Below, piece after piece: positions 1 through 30,999 of a stretch of DNA of 64,000 nucleotides (positions are counted from its first letter, which is position 1; every line of letters starts with the position of its first letter). Origin of the DNA: a virus. The translations under genes were made by a program, and so were the position numbers. The stretch is taken from IMG/VR virus record IMGVR_UViG_3300036715_003363. One strand, 5' to 3'. The notes beneath the pieces are model-generated. The model was given only the letters and a program-made list of their open reading frames with translations. It was not told the origin of the DNA and searched no databases.

Positions 1-1
1 A

Positions 2-490
2 TTAACATCTCTAAATGGTTGTCCGGCTTCAGTTGGCAGAAACTTTTACTGTTCACGCAACCAATTAACATCTCTAAATGGTTGTCCTTCTTCAGTTGGT
101 GGAAGCTTTGACTGTTATGGCAACCAATTAACATCTCTAAATGGTTGTCCAGCTTCAGTTGATGGAAACTTTGACTGTTATAACAACAAATTAACATCTC
201 TAAATGGCTGTCCGTCTTCAGTTGGCAGAGACTTTAACTGTTCTAACAATCAATTAACATCTCTAAATGGTTGTCCGTCTTCAGTTGGTGGATACTTTAA
301 CTGTAATAACAACAAATTAACATCTCTAAATGGTTGTCCGGCTTCAGTTGGCAGAAACTTTCGCTGTTATGGCAACCTAAAAGATTTTACTGAACTAGGC
401 GTTGAAAACGCAATAAGAGCTAGTAGAATTAAAAGTAGTTTGAGCTCTCAAACCTTGGATACTTTCAGTGATATAATCGATGAACTATAA
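2..490 (+). CDS. LRR paralog, 5'-truncated by window edge (at least 6 repeats)
   Basis: Frame from nt 2 reads LTSLNGCPASVGRNFYCSRN... and ends FSDIIDEL-TAA at 488-490, the same C-cap as the following genes. Not in the ORF track because it lacks a start. Confidence 0.9.
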   Translation, partial: LTSLNGCPASVGRNFYCSRNQLTSLNGCPSSVGGSFDCYGNQLTSLNGCPASVDGNFDCYNNKLTSLNGCPSSVGRDFNCSNNQLTSLNGCPSSVGGYFNCNNNKLTSLNGCPASVGRNFRCYGNLKDFTELGVENAIRASRIKSSLSSQTLDTFSDIIDEL

Positions 491-493
491 ATT

Positions 494-1147
494 ATGAACT
501 TTAATAAACAACAATGGCTTAAAACTGTTAAGCACACAATTCACTCAGATGGAAGTATTTCTGTGCAAGGAGATGTTGATCTATATAATAAAAACCTGAC
601 AAAAATACCCTTTAAGTTTCGTAAAGTAACTGGAAACTTTAACTGTCACTACAACCAATTAACATCTCTAAATGGTTGTCCGGCTTCAGTTGGTGGAAAC
701 TTTAATTGTGCTCTCAACAAATTAACATCTCTAAATGGCTGTCCGTCTTCAGTTAGTGGAAACTTTTACTGTGGTAATAACCAATTAACATCTCTAAATG
801 GTTGTCCGTCTTCAGTTGGCGGAGACTTTAGCTGCTCTCACAACCAATTAACATCTCTAAATGGCTGTCCGTCTTCAGTTGGCAGAGACTTTCACTGTGG
901 TAACAACCAATTAACATCTTTAAACGGTGGTCCGTCTTCAGTTGGCAGAGACCTTCACTGTCCACGCAACCAATTAACATCTCTAAATGGTTGTCCGGCT
1001 TCAGTTAGTGGAAGATTTGACTGTTATGGCAACCTAAAAGATTTTACTGAACCGGATGTTGAAAACGCAATAAGAGCTAGTAGAATTAAAAGTAGTTTGA
1101 GCTCTCAAGCCTTAAATACTTTCAGTGATATAATCGATGAACTATAA
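494..1147 (+). CDS. LRR protein, 6 x 21-aa repeats
   Basis: N-cap MNFN..DGSISVQGDVDL..IPFKFRKV, repeats QLTSLNGCPSSVGGxFxCxxN, C-cap ..TFSDIIDEL. Confidence 0.9.
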   Translation: MNFNKQQWLKTVKHTIHSDGSISVQGDVDLYNKNLTKIPFKFRKVTGNFNCHYNQLTSLNGCPASVGGNFNCALNKLTSLNGCPSSVSGNFYCGNNQLTSLNGCPSSVGGDFSCSHNQLTSLNGCPSSVGRDFHCGNNQLTSLNGGPSSVGRDLHCPRNQLTSLNGCPASVSGRFDCYGNLKDFTEPDVENAIRASRIKSSLSSQALNTFSDIIDEL

Positions 1148-1150
1148 ATT

Positions 1151-1867
1151 ATGAACTTTAATGCACAACAATGGCTTAAAACTGTTAAGCACACAATTCA
1201 CTCAGATGGAAGTATTTCTGTACAAGGAGATGTTGATCTACGTGAACAAAACCTGACAAAGATACCCTTTAAGTTTCGTAAAGTATCTGGAAACTTTTTC
1301 TGTTCTCACAACCAATTAACATCTCTAAATGGTTGTCCTTCTTCAGTTGGTAGAGACTTTTACTGTCAATACAACAAATTAACATCTCTAAATGGTTGTC
1401 CATCTTCAGTAAGTGGAGGCTTTTACTGCTCTAGCAACAAATTAACATCTCTAAATGGTTGTCCTTCTTCAGTTGGTAGAGACTTTAGCTGTGATCACAA
1501 CAAATTAACATCTCTAAACGGCTGTCCGTCTTCAGTTGATGGAGACTTTTACTGTTCTTTCAATCAATTAACATCTCTAAATGGTTGTCCTTCTTCAGTT
1601 GGTGGAGACTTTAACTGTTCTCACAACCAATTAACATCTCTAAATGGTTGTCCGGCTTCAGTTAGTGGAGGCTTTAACTGTTCTTTCAATCAATTAACAT
1701 CTTTAAACGGCTGTCCTTCTTCAGTTGGTGGAGACTTTAACTGCACTGACAACCTAAAAGATTTTACTGAACTAGATATTGAAAACGCAATGAGAGCTAG
1801 TAGACTAAAAAGTAGGTTGAGCTCTCAAACCTTGGATACTTTCAGTGATATAATCGATGAACTTTAA
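1151..1867 (+). CDS. LRR protein, 7 repeats
   Basis: Same caps; 238 aa = 133 + 5x21. Confidence 0.9.
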   Translation: MNFNAQQWLKTVKHTIHSDGSISVQGDVDLREQNLTKIPFKFRKVSGNFFCSHNQLTSLNGCPSSVGRDFYCQYNKLTSLNGCPSSVSGGFYCSSNKLTSLNGCPSSVGRDFSCDHNKLTSLNGCPSSVDGDFYCSFNQLTSLNGCPSSVGGDFNCSHNQLTSLNGCPASVSGGFNCSFNQLTSLNGCPSSVGGDFNCTDNLKDFTELDIENAMRASRLKSRLSSQTLDTFSDIIDEL

Positions 1868-2510
1868 TGCACAACAATGGCTTAAAACTGTTAAGCACTC
1901 AATTCACTCAGATGGAAGTATTTCTGTACAAGGAGATGTTGATCTAAGTTGTAAAAACCTGACAAAGATACCCTTTAAGTTTCGTAAAGTAACTGGAGAC
2001 TTTTACTGTTATAACAACAAATTAACATCTCAAAATGGCTGTCCGTCTTCAGTTGGTGGAAACTTTGACTGTTCTTACAACCAATTAACATCTCTAAATG
2101 GCTGTCTGTCTTCAGTTAGTGGAGACTTTAACTGCTCTCACAACAAATTAACATCTCTAAATGGTTGTCCATCTTCAGTTAGTGGAGACTTTCACTGTTA
2201 TAACAACCAATTAATGTCTCTAAATGGTTGTCCATCTTCAGTAAGTGGAGGCTTTGACTGTTCTCGCAACCAATTAACATCTCTAAGTGGCTGTCCTTCT
2301 TCAGTTGGTGGAACCTTTAACTGTTTTAACAACCAATTAACATCTCTAAATGGTTGTCCATCTTCAGTTGGCGAAATCTTTTTCTGTTATGACAACCTAA
2401 AAGATTTTACTGAACTGGATATTGAAAACGCAATGAGAGCTAGTAGAATTAAAAGTAGTTTGAGCTCTCAAACCTTGGATACTTTCAGTGATATAATCGA
2501 TGAACTATAA
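1857..2510 (+). CDS. LRR protein, 6 repeats
   Basis: Same caps; start overlaps previous gene by 11 nt. Confidence 0.9.
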   Translation: MNFNAQQWLKTVKHSIHSDGSISVQGDVDLSCKNLTKIPFKFRKVTGDFYCYNNKLTSQNGCPSSVGGNFDCSYNQLTSLNGCLSSVSGDFNCSHNKLTSLNGCPSSVSGDFHCYNNQLMSLNGCPSSVSGGFDCSRNQLTSLSGCPSSVGGTFNCFNNQLTSLNGCPSSVGEIFFCYDNLKDFTELDIENAMRASRIKSSLSSQTLDTFSDIIDEL

Positions 2511-2513
2511 ATT

Positions 2514-2915
2514 ATGAACTTTAATGCACAACAATGGCTTAAAACTGTTAAGCATACAGTTCACTCAGATGGAAGTATCTCTGTACAAGGAGATGTTAAT
2601 CTATGTAATAAAAACCTGACAAAAATACCCTTTAAGTTTCGTAAAGTAACTGGAAACTTTAACTGTTCTCGCAACCAATTAAAGTCTCTAAACGGCTGTC
2701 CGTCTTCAGTAAGTGGAGGCTTTTACTGTCACTACAACCAATTAACATCTCTAAATGGTTGTCCGTCTTCAGTTGATGGATACTTTTTCTGTTATGACAA
2801 CCTAAAAGATTTTACTGAACTGGATATTGAAAACGCAATGAGAGCTAGTAAAATTAAAAATAGTTTGAGCTCTCAGACCTTGGAGACTTTCAGTGATATA
2901 ATCGATGAACTATGA
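2514..2915 (+). CDS. LRR protein, 2 repeats (shortest paralog)
   Basis: Both caps intact, 133 aa. Confidence 0.9.
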   Translation: MNFNAQQWLKTVKHTVHSDGSISVQGDVNLCNKNLTKIPFKFRKVTGNFNCSRNQLKSLNGCPSSVSGGFYCHYNQLTSLNGCPSSVDGYFFCYDNLKDFTELDIENAMRASKIKNSLSSQTLETFSDIIDEL

Positions 2916-3628
2916 ACTTTAATGCACAACAATGGCTTAAAACTGTTAAGCACTCAATTCACTCAGATGGAAGTATTTCTGTACAAGGAGATGTTGATAT
3001 AAGTGATCAAAACCTGACAAAGATACCCTTTAGGTTTCGTAAAGTAACTGGAAGATTTGACTGCTCTTACAACAGATTAACATCTCTAAATGGTTGTCCG
3101 TCTTCAGTTGGTGGAGGCTTTGACTGCTCTAACAACCAATTAACATCTCTAAATGGTTGTCCATCTTCAGTTGATGGAAGATTTGACTGTTATGGCAACC
3201 AATTAACATCTCTAAATGGTTGTCCGTCTTCAGTTAGTGGAGACTTTCACTGTGGTAACAACCAATTAACATCTCTAAATGATTGTCCTTCTTCAGTTGG
3301 TGGTAACTTTAACTGTTCTAACAACCAATTAACATCTCTAAATGGTTGTCCGTCTTCAGTTGGTGGAAACTTTGACTGTTATAACAACAAATTAACATCT
3401 CTAAATGGTTGTCCGTCTTCAGTTGGTGGAAACTTTGACTGTTATGACAACAAATTAACATCTCTAAATGGCTGTCCTTCTTCAGTTAGTGGAGGCTTTG
3501 ACTGTTATGACAACCTAAAAGATTTTACAAAACTGGATATTGAAAACGCAATGAGAGCTAGTAAAATTAAAAATAGTTTGAGCTCTCAGACCTTAGATAC
3601 TTTCAGTGATATAATCGATGAACTATGA
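2912..3628 (+). CDS. LRR protein, 7 repeats
   Basis: Same caps; ATGA overlap. Confidence 0.9.
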   Translation: MNFNAQQWLKTVKHSIHSDGSISVQGDVDISDQNLTKIPFRFRKVTGRFDCSYNRLTSLNGCPSSVGGGFDCSNNQLTSLNGCPSSVDGRFDCYGNQLTSLNGCPSSVSGDFHCGNNQLTSLNDCPSSVGGNFNCSNNQLTSLNGCPSSVGGNFDCYNNKLTSLNGCPSSVGGNFDCYDNKLTSLNGCPSSVSGGFDCYDNLKDFTKLDIENAMRASKIKNSLSSQTLDTFSDIIDEL

Positions 3629-4407
3629 ACTTTAATAAACAACAATGGCTTAAAACTGTTAAGCACACAATTCACTCAGATGGAAGTATTTCTGTACAAG
3701 GAGATGTTGATCTATGTGATAAAAACCTGACAGAGCTACCCTTTAAGTTTCGTAAAGTATCTGGAGACTTTAACTGCTCTTTCAACAAATTAACATCTTT
3801 AAGTGGTTGTCCGTCTTCAGTTGGTGGAGACTTCTACTGTGATCACAACCAATTAACATCTCTAAGTGGTTGTCCAACTTCAGTTGGCGGAGGCTTTAAC
3901 TGTTCTCACAACCAATTAACATCTCTAAATGGTTGTCCATCTTCAGTTGGTGGAGCCTTTTACTGTAATAATAACAACCAATTAACATCTTTAAATGGTT
4001 GTCCATCTTCAGTTGGTGGAGCCTTTTACTGTTATAACAACCAATTAACATCTCTAAATGGTTGTCCATCTTCAGTTGGTGGAGGCTTTTACTGTTATGG
4101 CAACCAATTAACATCTCTAAATGGCTGTCCTTCTTCAGTTGGTGGAAACTTTTTCTGTTCTAACAACCAATTAACATCTCTAAATGGTTGTCCTTCTTCA
4201 GTTGGTGGAGGCTTTTACTGTGATCACAACCAATTAACATCTCTAAATGGTTGTCCGTCTTCAGTCAGTAAAGACTTTTACTGCTCTGACAACCTAAAAG
4301 ATTTTACTAAACTGGATATTGAAAACGCAATGAGAGCTAGTAGAATAAAAAGTAGTTTGAGCTCTCAGACCTTGGAGACTTTCAGTGATATAATCGATGA
4401 ACTTTAA
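3625..4407 (+). CDS. LRR protein, 8 repeats (one with an extra Asn)
   Basis: 260 aa = 133 + 6x21 + 1; YCNNNNQL insertion. Confidence 0.9.
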   Translation: MNFNKQQWLKTVKHTIHSDGSISVQGDVDLCDKNLTELPFKFRKVSGDFNCSFNKLTSLSGCPSSVGGDFYCDHNQLTSLSGCPTSVGGGFNCSHNQLTSLNGCPSSVGGAFYCNNNNQLTSLNGCPSSVGGAFYCYNNQLTSLNGCPSSVGGGFYCYGNQLTSLNGCPSSVGGNFFCSNNQLTSLNGCPSSVGGGFYCDHNQLTSLNGCPSSVSKDFYCSDNLKDFTKLDIENAMRASRIKSSLSSQTLETFSDIIDEL

Positions 4408-5176
4408 TGCACAACAATGGCTTAAAACTGTTAAGCATACAGTTCACTCAGATGGAAGTATCTCTGTACAAGGAGATGTTGATCTATGTGATAAAAACCT
4501 GACAGAGCTACCCTTTAAGTTTCGTAAAGTATCTGGAGACTTTAACTGTGATTACAACAAATTAACATCTCTAAATGGCTGTCCGTCTTCAGTTGGCAGA
4601 GGCTTTTACTGTTATACCAACCAATTAACATCTCTAAATGGTTGTCCATCTTCAGTTGGTGGAGACTTTGAATGTGATCACAACCAATTAACATCTCTAA
4701 ACGGTTGTCCGGCTTCAGTTGATGGAAACTTTGACTGTTCTAGCAACCAATTAATGACTCTAAACGGTTGTCCGGCTTCAGTTGATGGAAACTTTTACTG
4801 TGCTTACAACCAATTAACATCTCTAAGTGGTTGTCCGTCTTCAGTTAGTAAAGGCTTTTACTGTGGTGACAACCAATTAACATCTCTAAGTGGTTGTCCG
4901 TCTTCAGTTGGTAAAGGCTTTTACTGTGGTGACAACCAATTAACATCTTTAAACGGTGGTCCGTCTTCAGTTGGTGGAAGCTTTGACTGTACTAACAACC
5001 AATTAACATCTCTAAATGGTTGTCCGTCTTCAGTTGGTAAAGGCTTTTACTGTGGTGACAACCTAAAAGATTTTACAAAACTGGATATTGAAAACGCAAT
5101 GAGAGCTAGTAAAATTAAAAATAGTTTGAGCTCTCAGACCTTGGAGACTTTCAGTGATATAATCGATGAACTTTAA
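4397..5176 (+). CDS. LRR protein, 8 repeats, last of array
   Basis: 259 aa, same caps. Confidence 0.9.
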   Translation: MNFNAQQWLKTVKHTVHSDGSISVQGDVDLCDKNLTELPFKFRKVSGDFNCDYNKLTSLNGCPSSVGRGFYCYTNQLTSLNGCPSSVGGDFECDHNQLTSLNGCPASVDGNFDCSSNQLMTLNGCPASVDGNFYCAYNQLTSLSGCPSSVSKGFYCGDNQLTSLSGCPSSVGKGFYCGDNQLTSLNGGPSSVGGSFDCTNNQLTSLNGCPSSVGKGFYCGDNLKDFTKLDIENAMRASKIKNSLSSQTLETFSDIIDEL

Positions 5177-9142: not shown

Positions 9143-9484
9143 ATGTCTAACAAACTCACTACACTGGGATACAATCTAAAAAGATTTAGAGATAACGGAT
9201 ACTACACTCACAAGGTGTTTACAGATTATGCGCGACATGATCCGCGCGCATGGACGATTATGATTGATCCAGGTTGTGCATCAATTTTCTGTACTTGTTA
9301 TGTTAATGCCCCTGAGTATGGCGATTCGTATTTTGAGTTGTATGATGGAGGTCAGTTTATTCCCGGCAGACTAAAAATTAAAACAAATTCCTTTGAAGTG
9401 CTTGTTGAGCATCTCGTACGATACGGTATCAATAATAAAGCACCAGGATATGATGTTCGCAATGGCAACAGAGATAATACGTAA
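9143..9484 (+). CDS. hypothetical protein
   Basis: 113-aa ORF in operon. Confidence 0.7.
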   Translation: MSNKLTTLGYNLKRFRDNGYYTHKVFTDYARHDPRAWTIMIDPGCASIFCTCYVNAPEYGDSYFELYDGGQFIPGRLKIKTNSFEVLVEHLVRYGINNKAPGYDVRNGNRDNT

Positions 9485-9495
9485 TAAGTATTATT

Positions 9496-9822
9496 GTGTC
9501 AGACGAACCAGAAAAAAAGAGAAAGCTGCGTGCCAAAAAAGAAGAGGATGTCCCTCCGGCGATTGCAGATATCATTAGAGACGCAATAATGCGCTTTAGT
9601 GATACTGAATTACCAACAAAAAAAACTAAGCTAGAAGATCTTAAGCAGCTTGATGTAATTACTCAAGAGTATCTTAAGGCGTTTGTAATTCTTGGCTATG
9701 ATCTCAATGGCGAAAAAGTTCATATTATGCACGCACACACGCATCAAGATAAGGATGCGATAGTTGAGCATCTTCGCACAACACTAATTAATATCTTGCA
9801 TAATAACGGATCAAGCGATTAA
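9496..9822 (+). CDS. hypothetical protein upstream of terminase
   Basis: 108 aa; TAAGTA 5 nt upstream (9485-9490). Confidence 0.65.
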   Translation: MSDEPEKKRKLRAKKEEDVPPAIADIIRDAIMRFSDTELPTKKTKLEDLKQLDVITQEYLKAFVILGYDLNGEKVHIMHAHTHQDKDAIVEHLRTTLINILHNNGSSD

Positions 9823-9831
9823 TTATATATT

Positions 9832-11445
9832 ATGGTTAGTAAAGATAATCAGGATAATATTAATCCAGTAAATATTAAGCAGTGTTATAGAGGAGATAAA
9901 AATATTCCGACTCCTGATGCGGAATATAACTATACTCCTGCAATGGTTAAAGAGATTAAAAAGTGTAAGGAAAGCATTATTCACTTTGCTGAAAATCATT
10001 TTTATATTACCAACCTTGATCGAGGTAAAGAAAAGATTGAATTATATACTGCACAAAAGAGAGTGCTTCGTTCTCTAATGAATAATAGATTTGTTTGTCT
10101 TCTATCAAGTCGTCAGGCAGGAAAAGCGTTAGATGTTGATACTCCAATATTAACAGACAAAGGATGGGAAAAAATAGGAGATCTAAAAAATGGTGATTTT
10201 GTCTACGGTATCGATGGTAAAAAAACAAGAGTTGTTAAAGCACACGATATTCTTTATAAAAGAGATTGTTACGAAGTTGAGTTTGATAACGGCGAAAAAA
10301 TAGTAGCTGATGGTGATCACTTGTGGTTTACGCAATCACGATCAGAAAGAAAGAAAACAAAAGGAAGTGTTAAAACAACAAAAGACATTTTAAGTAATTT
10401 AAAAACATATAGCGGCGCGCCAAATCATAGAATTCCGATATGCATATCCGGCATTGAGAATTCAACAAAATTACTACCAATTGATCCTTACACGTTAGGA
10501 TTATGGCTAGGAGATGAAACAAACACATCAATAAGACTATCGTGCAAGACACTAAAGAAGAGTGAGAGTCTCACATCTATCATTAAAGAAAATAAACACA
10601 TTCCATCAGAATACTTCTTATCTTCGCGGGAGCAACGATTAGAATTATTAAAAGGTTTAATAGATTCAGATGGATATGTAAGACATGATGGAGGAACTTA
10701 TTTTTATAACACTAATCTCGAACTTGTTCAGCAAGTAAGAACACTTATTGAAGGCTTAGGATATAAAGTAACATATAAAGATTTTATACTCAAACCAAAC
10801 GGCGTTGAATGTACTCGATGCGGAATGATCACGTTTCAGCCGAGAGAGTTAGTTTGTACACTACCCTCTAAAACAAAAAGAATTAAAGTAGAACCTCAAG
10901 TGCATAACAGTAAAAAAAGAGGACATTATCACTATATTAAAAATATTACAGCTGTTAAAAGCAGACCTGTGAGATGCATCTCAGTTGATAATGAAGATAA
11001 TCTATATCTTGCAGGTAAACAATTAATTCCAACTCATAATAGTACTATTATGACAATCTATGCGCTTTGGCTTGCGTGTTTTTATTCTGATCAAAGAATT
11101 GTTATTGTTGCAAACAAAGAGAAGACTGCGACAAATATTTTTGGAAGAGTTAGAATGGCGTATGAACAGCTTCCAGGATACATTAAGCCTGGCGTAAAGG
11201 AATATCAAAAGACTGGTGTTATATTTGCAAACGATTCAAGTATCGGTGTATCAACAACAACATCTACTGCAGTAAGAGGAGAGTCAATTAATTGCTTGAT
11301 CTGTGATGAGCTTGCATTTGTGGAATGCGTGACAGGTGATTCGTTGATTGAGGTAAGAAACAAAAAAAACAAAGAAATTAAAAAAATAACAATACGTAAT
11401 TTTATGGAACTGTTATCAGTAAATAGTAACAGAGAAGGATTTTAA
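9832..11445 (+). CDS. gp17: large terminase fragment 1: ATPase N-part (Walker A RQAGK/ST, Walker B LICDE) with contiguous intein and C-terminal 39-aa split N-intein
   Basis: Y.G..N.P, EIKKC, SRQAGK|STI, VANK..TA, RGES.N.L..DE motifs of T4 gp17. Confidence 0.92.
   Translation: MVSKDNQDNINPVNIKQCYRGDKNIPTPDAEYNYTPAMVKEIKKCKESIIHFAENHFYITNLDRGKEKIELYTAQKRVLRSLMNNRFVCLLSSRQAGKALDVDTPILTDKGWEKIGDLKNGDFVYGIDGKKTRVVKAHDILYKRDCYEVEFDNGEKIVADGDHLWFTQSRSERKKTKGSVKTTKDILSNLKTYSGAPNHRIPICISGIENSTKLLPIDPYTLGLWLGDETNTSIRLSCKTLKKSESLTSIIKENKHIPSEYFLSSREQRLELLKGLIDSDGYVRHDGGTYFYNTNLELVQQVRTLIEGLGYKVTYKDFILKPNGVECTRCGMITFQPRELVCTLPSKTKRIKVEPQVHNSKKRGHYHYIKNITAVKSRPVRCISVDNEDNLYLAGKQLIPTHNSTIMTIYALWLACFYSDQRIVIVANKEKTATNIFGRVRMAYEQLPGYIKPGVKEYQKTGVIFANDSSIGVSTTTSTAVRGESINCLICDELAFVECVTGDSLIEVRNKKNKEIKKITIRNFMELLSVNSNREGF
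10126..11040 (+). mobile_element. contiguous class-3-type intein (305 aa) with eroded LAGLIDADG endonuclease
   Basis: Starts Ala (ALDVDTPILT), block B DHLW, block F VRCISV, ends PTHN/S; LGLWLGD and LKGLIDSDG motifs. Confidence 0.9.
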
Positions 11446-11792
11446 TTTTTATGGAGAACGAAAAGGAGGAATATATTGGTACAGATGAATGGGAGATTCT
11501 TACTCCATCCGGATGGCAATCATTTAAAGGTATTATATGCAGAGGTGTAAATGAAGTAAATAATGTCATTACAGAGAGCTCAAAAAAAATAAAAGTTACA
11601 GACAATCATGAGTTTATAAATCAATTAAATCATACAATTAAGTGTATAGATGCAAAAAATTGTTTTATTAAAACTGTTGATGGAACAGAGAAAATTACAA
11701 GCATTTTAAGCAGCGATGCTGAAGAAGTATATGATATAGTAGAGGTAGAAAACGGCAATATATTTTATGCGAACGGTATTGCTAACCACAAT
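11326..11792 (+). mobile_element. atypically split intein TerL-A: 39-aa IntN (11326-11442) + 114-aa IntC (11451-11792)
   Basis: CVTGDSLI...EGF-stop; next ORF has EILTPSGW, VTDNH, VYDIVEV, ANHN/C; splicing restores DELAFVE-CHLVEEFW. Confidence 0.85.
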
Positions 11793-12152
11793 TGCCACCT
11801 TGTAGAAGAGTTTTGGAACTCAGTTATCCCAGTTATTTCGTCCGGTAAGAAAACTAAAATTTTCGTTGTATCAACTCCTAATGGGGTTGCAAATAAGTTT
11901 TACGAAATCTATTCTGGAGCTGAAAAAGATGAAAATGGTTGGAAAGCAGAGAGAATTGACTGGTGGGAAATTCCCGGCAGAACTGAAAAATGGAAGGCGC
12001 AGATGATCGGTGCCCTCGGATCAGCGGAGAGTTTTAATGTTGAATTCGGAAATTGTGTAGAGGGATTATCTATTTTAAGCATAAATATAAACAACAAAAT
12101 AGAAAATATAACTATTAAAGATTTATATGAAACGTGTGAAAACAGATATTGA
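11451..12152 (+). CDS. gp17: large terminase fragment 2: IntC + 87-aa extein (motif III STPNG) + 32-aa IntN
   Basis: Extein CHLVEEFWNSVIPVISSG..STPNG..NKFY..WWEIPGR..EFGN is T4 gp17-like. Confidence 0.9.
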   Translation: MENEKEEYIGTDEWEILTPSGWQSFKGIICRGVNEVNNVITESSKKIKVTDNHEFINQLNHTIKCIDAKNCFIKTVDGTEKITSILSSDAEEVYDIVEVENGNIFYANGIANHNCHLVEEFWNSVIPVISSGKKTKIFVVSTPNGVANKFYEIYSGAEKDENGWKAERIDWWEIPGRTEKWKAQMIGALGSAESFNVEFGNCVEGLSILSININNKIENITIKDLYETCENRY

Positions 12153-12578
12153 AAAACAAATATCATGAATCACCTAAACAAACCGAAAAGGATTTAAAAC
12201 GACAAAAAATTATACAGGGCGAACCAAAATGTAATTTTATAATGTTAAGAGATTATGATAAAGCGTAATTATAAGAATGTTGAAGTTGTTACACCAACAG
12301 GTCTTAAAACCTTTTACGGTATTAGTAAGCAAAAAAAGGAATGTATTATTATTAATACAGAATTTAATAAATCTATTGTTGTATCAAAATTTCATCCGTT
12401 TATAGTTGGCGGTGACATAGTATTATCAAATGCGCTTAAAAAAGGTGATTGTCTTGAAAGCTATAACGGAAAATTTATAAAAATTCAATCGATTAAAGAT
12501 GTAGGAAAAAAAGACGTCTATGATCTAGTTGGTGTTGATGGTGACTGCTATTTTGCAAATGGTTTTCTTGTACATAAT
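12054..12578 (+). mobile_element. atypically split intein TerL-B: 32-aa IntN (12054-12149) + 108-aa IntC (12255-12578)
   Basis: CVEGLSIL...NRY-stop; next ORF has EVVTPTG, SKFH, VYDLVGV, LVHN/C; splicing restores VEFGN-CFLNSG. Confidence 0.88.
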
Positions 12579-13493
12579 TGCTTTCTTAATTCAGGTAACG
12601 CAGCAGTCGGCGCAGAAATTTTAGAAAAATTTAAACAGGAAAAAAAACCCGTAATTTGGGACGGCGAAGATGGAGGGTATAGAGTGTTTGAACTACCAGC
12701 TCCTAATAAAATGTATGTAGTTGGTGTTGATGTTGGAGAGGGTGTCGGCCGAGCATCTTCTGTTGCTCAAGTACTTGATGTAACAGATTTACAAGATATT
12801 AAACAAGTAGCGGTATACGGAACAAATAAAATAGAGCCTTATCATTTTGCTAATAAACTACATAATTTAGCAAGCTCTTGGGGAAATCCACCGATCCTAA
12901 TTGAGCGCAATAATTGCGGCGCGTCAGTTATTGACGCCTTATATCAAAATTTACACTACGATAAAATTGTAAGCTATTCAAAACTCTCAAATACTGGATC
13001 ATTCGCATCAACTCGTCATCTTGGCGTGTATAGTCACAACAATTTACGATTTGCATCTGTTGCTAATATGAGATATTGGCTCAATTTCTTGCAGGTTGTT
13101 CACATAAACGACATTGATACCATTAAAGAACTTGAAACATTTATCAGATATCCAAATGGCACGTATCGCAAACAAAGTGAAAAATTTTATGATGATCGCG
13201 TCATGGCTCTTGTGTGGTCTCTATTCATACTTGAAACAGATATATGTCAACAATATTACCAGGTTGACGAATACGACACCCAGAATAAGCCTCAAGTATT
13301 AAGTCGATATGCATATGAAGATATTAACCCTGATACGTATGTTTTACGAGATTTGACGTCAAAACTAGAGACTTCAATTGTATCTCCCACTGAGGGTCAA
13401 AAGTATAAATCGCTCATTAATAACGATGATTCGTATAATTCTTCTGAAGATGATCTGGATTCTCTATTAAGTAATGGTTGGACATACATGTGA
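12255..13493 (+). CDS. gp17: large terminase fragment 3: IntC + RNase H-like nuclease domain
   Basis: YVVGVDVGEGVG, LIERNN, DDRVMAL nuclease motifs. Confidence 0.92.
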   Translation: MIKRNYKNVEVVTPTGLKTFYGISKQKKECIIINTEFNKSIVVSKFHPFIVGGDIVLSNALKKGDCLESYNGKFIKIQSIKDVGKKDVYDLVGVDGDCYFANGFLVHNCFLNSGNAAVGAEILEKFKQEKKPVIWDGEDGGYRVFELPAPNKMYVVGVDVGEGVGRASSVAQVLDVTDLQDIKQVAVYGTNKIEPYHFANKLHNLASSWGNPPILIERNNCGASVIDALYQNLHYDKIVSYSKLSNTGSFASTRHLGVYSHNNLRFASVANMRYWLNFLQVVHINDIDTIKELETFIRYPNGTYRKQSEKFYDDRVMALVWSLFILETDICQQYYQVDEYDTQNKPQVLSRYAYEDINPDTYVLRDLTSKLETSIVSPTEGQKYKSLINNDDSYNSSEDDLDSLLSNGWTYM

Positions 13494-14086
13494 CAAATCC
13501 CACTCAACAATCAGTTTTAAACAGGGCAAGTACCGACAAGTTTATACTTGTATTAAACCTGCCAAACGTGCTTAAGAATCAGTTTATTACAGCTGGAAAT
13601 AAGATTTCAATTGATCCTCTTCAACTAAGCGTCTACGGGTCGATCGTGCCAGAAATCATAATTCCTGCAGTTCCAGTGTCATACTCCGGTCAGACATATA
13701 ATGTCTCGAGCCACACAAGACCAAATTATAATCCTCTAGTAGTTAACTTTATTGTTGACAATGAATTCCAGAATTATTATACAATGTGGGCGTGGCTAAA
13801 CGCACTAAATACAGCAGATGGAAGTATATATGGCGGCACTAGTTTTGATCAGCCGACAAGAAGAACTGCAGTTATTCCGCAAGGAAATATGAACGAGTAT
13901 CAGACAAACCTAACTGTTTATGGACTTAACGAATACAACCAAAGAGTCATAGAATTCACGTATTTTAACGCTTTTATTACAAATCTCGGAGGAATTAACT
14001 ACAACTATCAGGATCCTTCTCAAATAAATATAACTGCAACGTTTCAGTACAGCAAATTTGAAACTCTACTTATAAGTAACAACTAA
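13478..14086 (+). CDS. gp3: tail terminator / tube-fold protein, gp3-like
   Basis: VNFIVDNEFQNY...W, FTYFNAFITNLG.INY, ATFQY tube-fold motifs; start may be GTG 13490. Confidence 0.6.
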   Translation: MDIHVTNPTQQSVLNRASTDKFILVLNLPNVLKNQFITAGNKISIDPLQLSVYGSIVPEIIIPAVPVSYSGQTYNVSSHTRPNYNPLVVNFIVDNEFQNYYTMWAWLNALNTADGSIYGGTSFDQPTRRTAVIPQGNMNEYQTNLTVYGLNEYNQRVIEFTYFNAFITNLGGINYNYQDPSQINITATFQYSKFETLLISNN

Positions 14087-16368: not shown

Positions 16369-18225
16369 ATGAGCGAACAGGTCTTATGTAGTGAACAAAA
16401 TAGGAGTTTAATATTAGAATTGAAAACTTCATATCCAAAACACTACATCAAAATGATTAAAACAAGAAATTTTAAGCTCTGGCTTAAAATACAAGAATTC
16501 AATAAAGACATTGAATGTAGTTATGAAATAACAAACGCTCAAAAAGTATACAACTATTTGAATAATATAAAAATAATCCCTTTATGTCCTGCTACATCAA
16601 AACAGTTAAATTTTTTAAACACAAAATTTGAATATAGAAAATTCTGTGGTAGAGGGATATTCACAACAGAATTTACAAGAGATAGAGGATCTAAGCGAAC
16701 AGGAACGAAATATAATAAAAATATTATAGATTACAAAACACTCAAAACTGAGCTGACGTCTTTTAAAAGCATTTATCTTGAATATAAAAAAGTTTTATCA
16801 ACGTCTACATTTAATGCCGCTAGCCAGCTGCTATCAACTAAATATCCAAAATTAAAGAATGAAATTCACAACTATTTTAATTATTACGAACCTTTTCGAG
16901 CATGCTTATATTGTATAATCAATAATATTGAAGCAATACCAGTATGTGAAATAGATAAAGTTTCATTATGCACATTTTTAGGAGAGAAGAAAGGATTTAC
17001 AAAAACAGCAAACATTAATGCTCACATACTTAAAAGTATTAACGTTAAAAATAAAATTGATACAGCTAATGTTATCAATAAAGATGAGCTAATTGTGTCT
17101 CTTCGCAGTAAAATTTTAGAGCTAAAATCATATCAAAACTTGAAACAGAGCCTATTAAAGATTGATCCGGATATTGTTGCATCTGTCATTCATTATACGT
17201 CTCAACTAAAAAATATAAAAAAATTCAGTGAAAGATGTTATATTTTATTAAACGGAGTACCTCAAAAAAGTCGCGATAAAATAAAATTACATTATCAATC
17301 TTTTAATGAAGGGTATTATGAAAGATTTAAACATACAAACGAAAGCGTCGGAGAAAATGAAATTTTTAATTTTATTAACAGTGAATTAAATATACCTTGT
17401 GAAAAAATGCGTGACGCGTTTGAAATAGATATTTTTATTCCGTCAAAATCTATAGGAATTGAATATAACGGGGAATATTTTCATTCTAATATACACAAAG
17501 ATAAAATGTATCATTACATAAAAACTCAGCATTTTTTATCAAGAGGAATAAACATTCTTCATATATTTGAAACAGAGTGGTACAATAAAAAAGATATTGT
17601 TAAATCCATAATTTGCTCAAAATTAGGAATACATAAAATAAAAATTTACGCTAGAAAATGCAGACTAGTTGATATGACCTCATCTAATAAAAATGAATTT
17701 CTTAAAAACAATCATATTCAAGGAATTGATAAGAGTTTTGATTGTGCAGGACTTGAGTATAACGGTGAGATTGTATCAATAATGACCCTATGCAAAAGAA
17801 AAATTACAGGACGAAAAACAATTGAAATGTCGAGATTTTGTAGTGCGTTAAACACTCAGGTTGTTGGAGGTGCATCAAAATTGTTAAAATATCTATTAAA
17901 AAGAAATAAAGACATTCAAAATATTACAACTTATTGTGATGTTCGATACGGAGCAAATTCAAATGTGTATGAAACGCTAGGATTTACATTTAAACATATT
18001 AGCTCCCCTGATTATTACTACTTTAAACCAGCTATGCCAAAATATTGTAAGCTATTACATCGAAGTAATTTTATGAAACATAAGCTTGTTAGTAAGCTAG
18101 AAGTATTTGATTCCCTCAAGACAGAAAAAGAAAACATGGATTCAAATAAGTATCTCCATATATATGATTGCGGAAATAAAGTCTATGAGATGGTCAACCC
18201 ATACTACAAAAAACAGGAGAGTTAG
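16369..18225 (+). CDS. Hef-like free-standing endonuclease (Vsr/PD-(D/E)xK-like domain + GNAT-like C-domain)
   Basis: EIDIFIP..IGIEYNGEYFH, LHIFETEW, SRFC..VVGGASKLL, YCDVRY, VY..LGF, IYDCG; own TATAAATA at 16354. Confidence 0.7.
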   Translation: MSEQVLCSEQNRSLILELKTSYPKHYIKMIKTRNFKLWLKIQEFNKDIECSYEITNAQKVYNYLNNIKIIPLCPATSKQLNFLNTKFEYRKFCGRGIFTTEFTRDRGSKRTGTKYNKNIIDYKTLKTELTSFKSIYLEYKKVLSTSTFNAASQLLSTKYPKLKNEIHNYFNYYEPFRACLYCIINNIEAIPVCEIDKVSLCTFLGEKKGFTKTANINAHILKSINVKNKIDTANVINKDELIVSLRSKILELKSYQNLKQSLLKIDPDIVASVIHYTSQLKNIKKFSERCYILLNGVPQKSRDKIKLHYQSFNEGYYERFKHTNESVGENEIFNFINSELNIPCEKMRDAFEIDIFIPSKSIGIEYNGEYFHSNIHKDKMYHYIKTQHFLSRGINILHIFETEWYNKKDIVKSIICSKLGIHKIKIYARKCRLVDMTSSNKNEFLKNNHIQGIDKSFDCAGLEYNGEIVSIMTLCKRKITGRKTIEMSRFCSALNTQVVGGASKLLKYLLKRNKDIQNITTYCDVRYGANSNVYETLGFTFKHISSPDYYYFKPAMPKYCKLLHRSNFMKHKLVSKLEVFDSLKTEKENMDSNKYLHIYDCGNKVYEMVNPYYKKQES

Positions 18226-18249: not shown

Positions 18250-18789
18250 ATGAGCCAAAATATCGCTGATTTTTACACAGTAGCCGCTGCAAATGACTTT
18301 GCACGTAAGTTTCAATTTCGTGTTGTACAACTTGCACAGACGAATTTTAATGAAAACGCTCTTGTTTATCTTGAGTCTGCAGCTCTTCCAGGTAGATTGA
18401 TCAACAACGTTCAAGTTCCTTTTGAAGGACTTCAGTTTAACGTTCCTGGAACTGCATCATATCCTGGCTCTGATAACTATTCTGTGACGTTCCGTTGCGA
18501 TGCAAGTTACAACATCCGTTCTATTCTCGAAGCTACTACATTCACAACATTTGACGAGAGCACAAGCACAGGTGACTATAGCCTTCCTGGACCTCAGTCA
18601 GTTATCACTCTCAATCTTCTTGACAAGCTTAATGTTCCTATTAAGCAATACAACCTCGTCGGTGCGTATGTTAAAGAGGTTGGTGAGATGGCATACGATC
18701 TTGGTGACGCCGGAACAGTTCAGACAGTTACTGCAACGCTTGCATATCAGTACTGGAATGTAATTAATATTGCCGCGGTTGGCCCCTAA
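18250..18789 (+). CDS. gp19: tail tube protein
   Basis: SAALPG, VPFEG.QFNVPG..Y, VTF..D, YNLVGAYV..VG, TLAYQYW; TATAAATA at 18226. Confidence 0.88.
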   Translation: MSQNIADFYTVAAANDFARKFQFRVVQLAQTNFNENALVYLESAALPGRLINNVQVPFEGLQFNVPGTASYPGSDNYSVTFRCDASYNIRSILEATTFTTFDESTSTGDYSLPGPQSVITLNLLDKLNVPIKQYNLVGAYVKEVGEMAYDLGDAGTVQTVTATLAYQYWNVINIAAVGP

Positions 18790-28611: not shown

Positions 28612-28866
28612 ATGGCTAATATTTTTTCACCGACCCTTCCTATAACAGGACCGTGGTATATCTCAAGTGATGACTGGATGGGTGATTCCTTGCAGTATTT
28701 TAATGCAAACGTAAATTATCTTGCAACTCTTATTAATACCCTTAGCGCACAGAGTATAAGTCAAACAACTATTATTAATACCCTTAGTACGCAGAATATA
28801 AGTCAAACAACTCTTATTAATACTCTTAGTACTAATCTTGTAGCGCTCAGTGCTTACGTCGGCTAA
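28612..28866 (+). CDS. small protein with 2.5 x 14-aa repeats
   Basis: 42-nt units at 28729, 28771, 28813 (LINTLSxQxISQTT). Confidence 0.65.
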   Translation: MANIFSPTLPITGPWYISSDDWMGDSLQYFNANVNYLATLINTLSAQSISQTTIINTLSTQNISQTTLINTLSTNLVALSAYVG

Positions 28867-29864
28867 GCACTGCAGCTCTCACAATTGAGAATATTTCTAG
28901 CTAATTCCTGAGCAGGATTACTTGAGCGCTGATAATAAAGACTCTTAATGCCTTGTTCCCAGGCGAAAATCATTAAATCACTGACATCTTTCGGCTTTGT
29001 TGTGTGAGGAATCATTAAATTCAGTGATTGTCCTTGATCAATAAACTTTTGACGAGCCGCAGCTTGTATTATGATCTCTTTTTGTGAAATTTCGCCAAAT
29101 GTTTTATAAACAGCCTTTTCATGATCGCTTAAAAATTCTAAATGCTGAATAGAGCCTCCGCGCTTAAGAATTGATTCCCATACTTCATCAGTGTGCTGAC
29201 TCTTCTCTTTAAGAAGAGCTTTAAGATGAGGGCTTCTAAAAGTAAACTTGCCTTTTGCAAGATCTTTCACAAAATAGTTTCCATTAAGAGGTTCAATTGA
29301 AGGTGAAACCTGCCCGAGAATGAATGACGAAGAAGTTGTTGGAGCAACTGCGAGAGTTGTAGTGTTTCGTCGTCCATATCCTTCTAATAGAGGCGGCTCA
29401 CCAAGAAGTTTTGCAAGCTCTTCTGTTGCTCTGTCAGCCTTTTCGCGAATTGTCTTCCAAATTGTTGAGTTAAGAATTTTTGCTTCCATTGATTCAAACG
29501 GAATTGATTTCGCGTGAAGAAGAGAATGCCATCCAAGAACCCCAACACCAAGAGCGCGCTGATTAATTGCAAACTTACGAGGTGCATCCATGAATTTCAT
29601 ATTTTCTGTCTTTTCAATAAATTCAGACATAACTGCATCAAGGAAGTACACGAGAGTTTCAACGGCATCAGTGTTTTTCCATTCTTCCCATTTTTCAAGA
29701 TTAAGAGAAGAAAGATCACACACAAAAGATTCATCAACTGAGTTTGAAAGAGAAATTTCCGCACAGTTGTGCACTAAAATTTTATTCGCGAAAAAGTTTG
29801 CAGTTTTTTCAACAGTGATGTCATAAACAGGTTCGGTTCTTTTGATTCGTCTAATTTTTATCAT
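28863..29864 (-). CDS. nrdA: class I ribonucleotide reductase alpha, C-terminal fragment with 33-aa IntC
   Basis: ILVHN/CAEI, CDLSSLN, LGVGVLG, VAPTTSSS, FIDQGQS, LYY, C-term CESC. Confidence 0.95.
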   Translation of the reverse strand: MIKIRRIKRTEPVYDITVEKTANFFANKILVHNCAEISLSNSVDESFVCDLSSLNLEKWEEWKNTDAVETLVYFLDAVMSEFIEKTENMKFMDAPRKFAINQRALGVGVLGWHSLLHAKSIPFESMEAKILNSTIWKTIREKADRATEELAKLLGEPPLLEGYGRRNTTTLAVAPTTSSSFILGQVSPSIEPLNGNYFVKDLAKGKFTFRSPHLKALLKEKSQHTDEVWESILKRGGSIQHLEFLSDHEKAVYKTFGEISQKEIIIQAAARQKFIDQGQSLNLMIPHTTKPKDVSDLMIFAWEQGIKSLYYQRSSNPAQELARNILNCESCSA

Positions 29865-30249
29865 GATTTGTAAGTATTAAATTGTTATTCTTTTTTATAG
29901 TTGCATGCAGTGAGATTATATAATCGGTCTAACTACAACTCTGTATAATATCCGTTTCTTCTAGTTCTTGTGCTTGAATATATCCTCTGTTTTGAGTAAA
30001 GATTAAATGCTCAGGTGTACAACGAACTATATTTCCTTTTTCGTCTTCAATTTCAATTAAATCTTCAGACTCACCGGTTTGTGCAAAGGCAGTAATACTT
30101 TCATATGTAACAGAAGATGAATCAATATCATATGATCTAACCTTAATATTACTATAAATTTTATTATAATATTCTAAATCTTTAATGGGTATTTCAAGAT
30201 ATGTAATATCATTAATAATTATTTCAATAATAGTATCACCTGTAACGCA
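29766..30249 (-). mobile_element. split intein in NrdA: 106-aa IntN (30249-29932) + 33-aa IntC (29864-29766)
   Basis: NSNL|CVTGDT..CTPEH..; MIKI..VYDITV..NFFAN..VHN|CAEI; 64-nt gap. Confidence 0.93.
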
Positions 30250-30999
30250 CAAATTACTGTTATGAATTACAAGTCCTTTATCTTTATATACTTGAGGGGC
30301 TTGGTTGTTAGCATTATCAGAAAAGAATATATAAGGATAACCAGACGCAAAGCGCTTCTTAATAATGAGACCCCAAATCTTACGTTTGTGTTTGTCTCCG
30401 TCAATTAGATCCTTCATCCACGCATCTGAAATACAAACCCCAATTGATACGTCTTGAATTGTGTTACCAACATCCTTAATTTGCAAAAATTCCTCAATGT
30501 CAGGATGATCAACCGGAAGGTATGCTGCAAATGACCCACGTCTAACACTTCCCTGTGAAATTACACTCATTAGACTGTCATAAAGCTCCATAAAGTGAAC
30601 AGATCCTGTTGATTCACCGCCTGATGAGATTGCGGCACCTCTTCCGCGAATTTTACCAAAATAAGCAGATGTTCCACCGCCAACAGCAGTCATAACACCG
30701 ATCTCAGATACCTTTTCGAGAATACTCTCAATAGTGTCATCAATACAGCTTCCAAAACAGCTTATTGGGAGAGCTCTCGATCTACCAAAATTAGCCCAAA
30801 TCGGAGAGCTTAGGCTATACATCCCTTCCTTCATATAACCAATAAATTTCTCCGCAAATCCTTTATAAAGGTATTTTTCAGCTGTGTTAGCAATTTCTTC
30901 AATTCTTTGTTCAGCTGTTTCACCATCTATAAGGTATCCGCGACTAAGAAATTTGCGTGAATCTTTGTTTAGCCAGTAATAATCGTGCGTATTTGTCAT
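29929..30999 (-). CDS. nrdA: class I ribonucleotide reductase alpha, N-terminal fragment (no ATP cone) with IntN
   Basis: SSPIWANFG, PISCF, GGGTS, SQGSVRRG..AAYL...HPDI..FL, GYPYI, SNL. Confidence 0.95.
   Translation of the reverse strand: MTNTHDYYWLNKDSRKFLSRGYLIDGETAEQRIEEIANTAEKYLYKGFAEKFIGYMKEGMYSLSSPIWANFGRSRALPISCFGSCIDDTIESILEKVSEIGVMTAVGGGTSAYFGKIRGRGAAISSGGESTGSVHFMELYDSLMSVISQGSVRRGSFAAYLPVDHPDIEEFLQIKDVGNTIQDVSIGVCISDAWMKDLIDGDKHKRKIWGLIIKKRFASGYPYIFFSDNANNQAPQVYKDKGLVIHNSNLCVTGDTIIEIIINDITYLEIPIKDLEYYNKIYSNIKVRSYDIDSSSVTYESITAFAQTGESEDLIEIEDEKGNIVRCTPEHLIFTQNRGYIQAQELEETDIIQSCS

Follow-up and report, generated by a model that had tools for sequence, protein, structure and literature searches.

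A 64,000-nucleotide (nt) stretch of the virus record IMGVR_UViG_3300036715_003363, which belongs to a larger genome and is referred to here as the window, carries at positions 9832-13493 three consecutive open reading frames (ORFs) on the + strand, of 537, 233 and 412 amino acids (aa). Together they hold the parts of a T4-like large terminase (gp17), interrupted by one contiguous intein and by two split inteins whose N-terminal (IntN) and C-terminal (IntC) parts stand on either side of the breaks between the ORFs. The gaps are of 5 nt between ORF1 and ORF2 and of 102 nt between ORF2 and ORF3, and the two splice points fall at positions of the terminase that we call site 1, about five residues past the Walker B glutamate, and site 2, at the boundary between the ATPase and nuclease domains. 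A sequence-only reading of this DNA had described the same anatomy, and when the junction motifs were located by script its ORF limits and the lengths of all parts (three ORFs, cis intein, two split inteins) were reproduced to the residue. The coordinates are collected in Table 1.

Table 1. Parts of the split terminase locus in the window; arrows mark splice points.
Feature	Length	Positions	Strand	Content
ORF1, terminase piece 1	537 aa	9832-11445	+	N-extein, cis intein, extein with Walker B, IntN1
Extein 1a	98 aa	9832-10125	+	ends at Walker A SRQAGK; gapless against the intein-free relative P0005 (SSRQAGKST)
Cis intein	305 aa	10126-11040	+	in the P-loop; LAGLIDADG domain; GK↓ALDVDTPIL...PTHN↓ST
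Extein 1b	95 aa	11041-11325	+	STIMTIY to Walker B LICDELAFVE
IntN1	39 aa	11326-11442	+	DELAFVE↓CVTGDS...; CVTGDSLIEVRNKK...REGF; net charge +3; stop codon at 11443-11445
ORF2, terminase piece 2	233 aa	11451-12152	+	IntC1, extein 2, IntN2
IntC1	114 aa	11451-11792	+	block B TDNH, block F VYDIVEVENGNIFYANG, block G IANHN, +1 Cys; charge -10
Extein 2	87 aa	11793-12053	+	CHLVEEFW...VEFGN; ATPase motif III (VSTPNG), subdomain II
IntN2	32 aa	12054-12149	+	VEFGN↓CVEGLSILSI...; CVEGLSILSININNK...; net charge -2
Spacer	102 nt	12153-12254		without ORF; free-standing gene here in relatives
ORF3, terminase piece 3	412 aa	12255-13493	+	IntC2, nuclease domain
IntC2	108 aa	12255-12578	+	block B SKFH, block F VYDLVGVDGDCYFANG, block G FLVHN, +1 Cys; charge +5
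Extein 3	304 aa	12579-13490	+	RNase H-like nuclease domain; starts CFLNSGNAAVG

Residues 14-501 of ORF1 match T4-like terminases (tblastn, expect value (E) 1e-88), extein 2 resembles the T4 gp17 structures 2O0H, 3CPE and 3EZK (E about 1e-6), and ORF3 matches terminases of cultured phages (tblastn). In ORF3, the Pfam family Terminase_6C is matched only weakly, with an E of 0.0094 that does not reach the cut-off; the extein 3 motifs, VGVDVGEG, IERNNCG and FYDDRVMAL, were read from the translation. Pfam also places C-terminal intein blocks at the expected positions in ORF2 and ORF3. Joining the four exteins in silico gives a chain of 584 aa with Walker A (SRQAGKST), Walker B (LICDE), motif III (VSTPNG) and the nuclease motifs VGVDVGEG, IERNN and DDRV; the T4-type large terminase motif set, including the catalytic Glu and the nuclease acidic residues, is complete in this one chain after intein removal, and a complete ATPase core is absent from each single piece. 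Over residues 19-281 the joined exteins are 67% identical, with 0 gaps, to the metagenomic relative P0005, whose N-terminal piece is intein-free at Walker A and near Walker B. The alignment crosses QAGK-ST and AFVE-CHLVEEFW uninterrupted, up to the common EFGN-C, and the proposal that removal of the inteins restores continuous gp17 motifs is thus borne out without a gap across the first two junctions. A search for a second terminase within the 64-kb window found none.

In both split inteins the residues required for splicing are intact, namely Cys1, the block B His, the terminal His-Asn and Cys+1 (alignments A1 and A2). The IntN parts follow the pattern C-x-x-G-D/E-S/T, strand, RN, EI, TI strand and short helix (A2), while the IntC parts start with an E-I/V-L-T-P-x-G-x-x-S-F-x-G-I strand, continue through the block B His and block F to the HN of block G (A1), and end in FYANGIANHN↓CHLVEEFW (IntC1) and FANGFLVHN↓CFLNSG (IntC2). 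The best solved relative of both is CatC (6DSL_B, "Consensus engineered intein CatC"; E 2.1e-8, residues 7-116 for IntC1, and E 3.2e-8, residues 1-109 for IntC2), with both aligned over their full length. Cat is an engineered consensus of the terminase inteins with the atypical split site, and these matches bear out the kinship with the AceL-TerL and GOS-TerL split inteins that the sequence-only reading had suggested. AceL-TerL was reportedly described by Thiel et al. in 2014, and GOS-TerL by Dassa et al. in 2009 (PMC2677866) and by Bachmann and Mootz in 2015. Both are split after the first helix, at the position termed S2, with an IntN of about 25-37 aa (PMC13014065), and a gp17-like terminase locus with an unusually long C part of 122 aa was already listed by Dassa et al. 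(2009; PMC2677866). When IntC1 (125 aa) and the tail of ORF1 (58 aa) were modeled as a complex, the score was 0.79 versus 0.31 for the best control, passing a mark that was reached by 58 of 80 solved complexes and by 2 of 110 mismatched pairs. The runs agreed in at least 86% of contacts, with a predicted local distance difference test (pLDDT) value of at least 66 for the partner, and in the model the part of IntN1 around Cys1 contacts blocks B, F and G as well as the first strand of the IntC. This pass may reflect likeness to the solved 6DSL rather than binding by this copy. For both pairs, we infer splicing in trans from these sequence features.

The third intein, which interrupts the Walker A loop within ORF1, matches the Pfam families LAGLIDADG_3 (E 1.9e-7) and Intein_splicing (E 2.6e-6). 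Its best matches in the PDB are 6RIX, 6BS8 and 6RIY (E 3e-24 to 2e-23), whose chains are named "Replicative DNA helicase" and which we take to be DnaB intein structures; in 6RIX (E 3e-24), HQW, RCVEVDN and PTHN align with the motifs of the cis intein. Those motifs comprise Ala1, GDHLW in block B, a Cys in block F (VRCISVD), a Thr in block G (PTHN) and Ser at +1, and class 3 inteins are defined by a non-nucleophilic residue 1, the triplet of Trp (block B), Cys (F:4) and Thr (G:5), and Ser or Thr at +1 (Tori et al., PMC2807308). Judged by this signature the cis intein is of class 3, and it is an ordinary member of the class, homologous terminase inteins being present in the cultured phages ECD7, kvi, RaK2, K64-1 and Synechococcus B3/B23.

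The breaks, as first proposed, were sought in related DNA. Both are present in a separately assembled contig of 4210 bp (L007, JGI sample 3300035661), which covers positions 9396-13605 of the window with 2 substitutions and no indel and in which both junctions are base-for-base identical, including the TTTT run and the spacer; splits at sites 1 and 2 also recur in other relatives (L016, L006). These data bear on the alternative that junction 1 is an artefact, a homopolymer error or a very recent deletion at the TTTT run (11440-11443) having broken a contiguous mini-intein, so that the true gene would consist of two pieces, with cis-splicing at site 1 and trans-splicing only at site 2. Such an origin is suggested by the 5-nt gap, since one extra T would fuse ORF1 and ORF2 in a frame reading ...NREGF-LIF-MENEKEE, and by the contiguous inteins of the same family found at site 1 (P0041, P0035, P0037 and P0157), because of which a cis form is structurally possible there. 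However, L007 has the identical junction despite its 2 substitutions elsewhere, which makes an assembly slip unlikely, and a four-base run is not error-prone on Illumina. Split homologues at site 1 are stronger evidence for the break than L007. In L016, the N-piece ends in DEASHIE↓CMHSSSMVTIRNKITNEIKTVTIKNLSRLLSHKA, with an IntN of 34 aa, and is followed by a free-standing ORF of 391 aa; the next gene starts with an IntC 50% identical to IntC1, which ends in NHN↓THLLEEFW and leads into the rest of the terminase. IntN1 is homologous to the L016 IntN and both end at the same place, L016 being split by this 1.2-kb gene. In at least 10 further clusters at 50% identity that begin with an IntC at site 1, the start codon lies 6-16 residues before the conserved WEILTPxGW strand, and the ATG of ORF2 stands at the same distance as in these more than 10 clusters of split homologues. 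We regard an artefact at junction 1 as quite improbable.

A different way of keeping site 1 in cis, with the genome unchanged, would be -1 ribosomal frameshifting at the T-run, by which ORF1 and ORF2 would be joined in translation through the junction peptide ...REGFLIFMENEK... ORF2 does lie in the -1 frame with respect to ORF1, directly after GGA-TTT-TAA, but an X-XXY-YYZ slippery heptamer is absent and a slipped tRNA-Phe would pair with ATT. This route is also impossible for the homologues with whole genes between the halves, and we find it scarcely credible. As for break 2, its position (EFGN↓C) is common to L006, P0004, P0005, P0009 and P0013, while the closest extein relatives, P0006, P0011 and P0021, read EFGN-TFLDPGNSAVGA through site 2 and represent empty-site alleles. 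A promoter and terminator scan found no terminator-like site on the + strand between the pieces, and promoter-like sites were fewer than in shuffled sequences.

From its sequence, and with good confidence, we consider that the locus probably encodes, in three genes, a genuine large terminase whose pieces would be joined by two trans-splicing reactions and one cis-splicing reaction, and that the phage is an uncultured myovirus, distantly T4-like. Besides the small width of junction 1 and the contiguous inteins at site 1, some further points weigh against this. L007 may share its sequencing technology with the window, both being assemblies and not raw reads, and the search for a second terminase covered only 64 kb of a larger genome. 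A Shine-Dalgarno-like motif was found at only 1 of the 47 starts in the window, that of ORF2; because this phage almost never uses such sites, start-site signals cannot confirm the initiation of ORF2 or ORF3, and an argument for the ORF2 start based on this motif was dropped. Finally, the expression of each piece and the splicing itself are inferred.

It could also be that the pieces are not covalently joined, either because the gene is decaying, in a defective phage or with a terminase outside the window, or because the intein halves hold the fragments together non-covalently. The window offers 64 kb of searchable genome, and non-covalent assembly of a fragmented phage gene is known for NrdA of Aeromonas phage Aeh1 (PMC3045599). 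These readings are hard to reconcile with exteins that keep 67% identity to relatives and have no frameshifts or stops, with two intein pairs that retain all their splicing residues, and with the recurrence of the same design across many lineages. Besides, the breaks interrupt the ATPase core, falling between Walker B and motif III, and there an unbroken chain would be expected to matter. Further evidence against this alternative comes from cultured Campylobacter phages, which have one N-piece and one C-piece. In phage CP30A (NC_018861), a 238-aa N-piece ending in IFIDE↓CVAGDTKITVRNKK..., with a 31-aa IntN, is encoded at about 49.5-50.2 kb on the - strand (L002 1480-2196), and the IntC with the remaining terminase at about 74.6 kb on the + strand (L001 3498-4826). 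The two pieces are thus 25 kb apart, the intein break falls directly after the Walker B Glu, and no second copy of either piece was found in CP30A; about 45 similar records have this type of arrangement. In two other cultured phages, Providencia phage PSTRCR_127 (MW358927; L005 1157-4089) and Vibrio phage VP-1 (MH363700; L004 846-4188), a short-IntN split intein breaks the terminase at site 2 and a GIY-YIG gene stands between its halves; in VP-1 this gene is fused in frame to the IntN. These viable phages show that short-IntN split terminase inteins work in vivo, and we give a small chance to the possibility that the pieces of the window are not joined. The CP30A record labels only the C-piece as a packaging protein, the pieces of PSTRCR_127 and VP-1 are annotated as hypothetical or "terminase like", and the Campylobacter phage literature examined does not mention a split terminase. 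Annotation pipelines evidently miss split terminases, whose pieces are labeled as separate or hypothetical proteins in these three phages.

Uncultured relatives of the locus were sought with HMMER, using ORF2 against 1.84 billion cluster representatives at 50% identity. This search gave 2181 matches, the best 150 of which were scanned with hidden Markov models built from alignments A1 and A2. At least 19 of these 150 start with an IntC and end with an IntN, as expected of middle pieces, and several more short proteins are probably of the same IntC...IntN type. Pattern-based classing of the sites was crude, with many Walker B sites mislabeled as site 2, and only the sequences themselves were used. 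Complete three-piece loci were recovered on contigs of three types. On a 225-kb contig (L006), a GIY-YIG gene separates piece 1, with its IntN, from a middle piece of 245 aa, and an ORF of 315 aa separates the latter from piece 3, with its IntC. The second type (L011) was recovered from several samples, on 7 contigs in all; its piece 1, of 124 aa, ends in GK↓C plus IntN and is followed by a Vsr-like gene, a middle piece of 323 aa, a GIY-YIG gene and a piece 3 whose IntC is nearly the Cat consensus. The third type is represented by L008. Where the window has its 102-nt spacer, these three carry an ORF of 189-315 aa. Across the family, inteins in cis and split forms occupy Walker A, at least 4 positions around Walker B, and 2-3 adjacent positions at the ATPase/nuclease boundary. 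At the nucleotide level the region matched none of 50,697 phage records searched, and scanning IMG/VR for ORF2 peptide patterns brought up no relative. Judging from these sequences, three-piece terminases are frequent in metagenomes, and the locus described here is one example, not a unique case.

Two observations on this family may be added. The first split intein of L006 (5001-5342) ends in Lys-Gln (GILNKQ↓C) instead of His-Asn, and several family members end in Q. In the window, the extein stretch 11290-11325 (ESINCLICDELAFVE) contains a Cys in IN-C-LICDE at the position where a different split intein has its +1 Cys in L006, P0008 and P0010 (N↓C-hhh-DE). In intein-free relatives this residue is Ile or Ser, and the Cys of the window may be the footprint of a lost intein, or a coincidence.

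In the mechanism that we propose for the window, the three pieces would be translated separately. A HINT fold would be completed when IntN1, at the end of piece 1, docks on IntC1 at the head of piece 2, and class 1 trans-splicing, relying on Cys1, the block B T-x-x-H, the terminal H-N and Cys+1, would join DELAFVE to CHLVEEFW. Independently, IntN2 of piece 2 would dock on IntC2 of piece 3, and VEFGN would be joined to CFLNSG at the boundary between the ATPase and nuclease domains, while the class 3 LAGLIDADG intein would leave the Walker A loop by excising itself in cis. The result would be the 584-aa terminase with all its motifs. The sequence-only reading had spoken of an ordered ligation of the pieces; its three-piece anatomy, with two trans splices and one cis splice, holds, but the sequence imposes no order and the reactions are chemically independent. 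The family of atypically split terminase inteins, to which both split inteins belong, spreads with free-standing homing endonucleases, and since the endonuclease genes between the halves are absent here, the split state persists without a mobility gene. The split may have arisen together with an endonuclease gene that subsequently disappeared, or else a cis intein may have broken in two.

An arrangement with IntC first and IntN last, as in the middle piece, is used in the laboratory to cyclise peptides, and with this layout cross-reaction between the two pairs would cyclise the middle piece or skip it. The two inteins are diverged paralogues, with an identity of 44% between their IntN parts (14 of 32 aligned residues) and of 38% between their IntC parts. 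The charges are of opposite sign in the two pairs, with +3 for the IntN and -10 for the IntC of pair 1 (-5 in its first 35 aa), versus -2 and +5 in pair 2 (+5 in the first 35 aa of its IntC). This reversal between pairs is also found in L011, but as a general rule it failed in part, L006 being not clearly reversed. Orthogonality of the two pairs through electrostatics is plausible from these sequences. A more far-reaching reading, which we put forward only tentatively and consider rather doubtful, is that the two inteins are a co-evolved orthogonal pair in which charge-coded pairing directs the right joining of the three fragments and prevents cyclisation or skipping of the middle piece, and that the split, fixed after the loss of both endonuclease genes, could serve the phage. 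A fixed split could, for example, hold back terminase activity until all three late products have accumulated.

The rest of the window (G+C 37%) offers some context for the locus. Compared with its counterparts in cultured T4-like phages, the sheath protein reaches no more than about 43% identity. Starts on the + strand are often preceded by A/T-rich, TAAATAA-like leaders, and these leaders, together with the motif at 1 of 47 starts, hint at a host with Shine-Dalgarno-independent initiation, such as one of the Bacteroidota. A third split intein in the window, of the conventional type with a long N part and a short C part, interrupts the gene for the large subunit of ribonucleotide reductase (nrdA), which is encoded by two ORFs on the - strand (28863-30999). 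Its N-piece, of 356 aa, ends in NSNL↓CVTGDTIIE... with an IntN of about 100 aa, and its 333-aa C-piece starts with a 33-aa IntC (...ILVHN↓CAEISLS); the gap is of 64 nt and holds no endonuclease gene. A free-standing homing endonuclease of 618 aa (16369-18225, + strand; phrog_3339, E 9e-90), whose residues 348-418 form a Vsr/MTES_1575-like domain, is encoded between the sheath and tail-tube genes, 3 kb downstream of the split terminase. Two ORFs of 202 and 179 aa (13478-14086 and 18250-18789, + strand), both assigned to the tail-tube family phrog_45, flank the sheath and endonuclease genes and could be paralogues, or tube and tube-like proteins. At the start of the window (1-5176, + strand) there is a tandem array of paralogous genes, at least 7 in number and 75-79% identical to one another, which encode 21-aa leucine-rich-type repeats (NQLTSLNGCPSSVGGxFxCxx) between constant caps and have near-identical DNA upstream of each gene.

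If the three-piece assembly takes place as proposed, an enzyme built by two trans reactions and one cis reaction would represent a clear natural case of tandem protein ligation, so far a matter of engineering only, and the layout of the middle piece implies that nature must have solved the cross-reaction problem. Loci of this kind would be a source of orthogonal short-IntN pairs for three-segment semisynthesis and labeling, a need stated in PMC12707363, and they would show how far mobile elements can fragment an essential phage gene. Full-text literature searches returned no natural protein made through two split inteins and no three-piece terminase, which does not prove absence from the literature; MIJ3, an actinobacteriophage intein survey, Barth et al., TaPaz and magroviruses were considered as precedents and found irrelevant. 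The view that the double-split layout is undescribed therefore agrees with these searches, but not any implied rarity, given the middle pieces among the best cluster representatives. Each element is known, and in public data they often occur together, with no published description of the combination found.

Among known systems, the class 3 inteins, with mycobacteriophage Bethlehem DnaB as prototype (PMC2807308), share with the cis intein Ala1, the Trp-Cys-Thr triplet, the +1 Ser and insertion in the P-loop; no notable difference was seen, apart from its position here beside two split inteins in the same protein. The two split inteins resemble the AceL, GOS and Cat inteins in their T4-like terminase host protein, in their Cys1/Cys+1 chemistry and in a split past the first helix, which leaves 25-40 aa for the IntN and over 100 aa for the IntC (39/32 and 114/108 aa here), and site 2 lies within one residue of the Cat-like intein site in L011. 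They differ in that two such inteins occur in one gene, with a middle piece that has its IntC first and its IntN last, in that intein 1 occupies another site, after Walker B (the AceL and GOS sites not being taken from the original papers), and in the absence of an endonuclease gene between the halves. In fractured genes (Dassa et al., 2009; PMC2677866), as at this locus, the pieces share one strand and an intein half stands on either side of the break. The free-standing homing endonuclease gene that characterizes fractured genes lies between the halves in L016, L006, L011, PSTRCR_127 and VP-1, but not in the window, whose gaps of 5 and 102 nt contain no ORF; the fractures described in that paper are one per gene, plus a DnaE locus with part of an additional in-frame intein, and do not involve two split inteins per gene. 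Engineered tandem trans-splicing (PMC12707363, PMC7090010) likewise joins three fragments by means of two non-cross-reacting split inteins, although in laboratory constructs with inteins from different sources, whereas here the arrangement is natural, both inteins are of the short-IntN type and they lie in a single phage gene.

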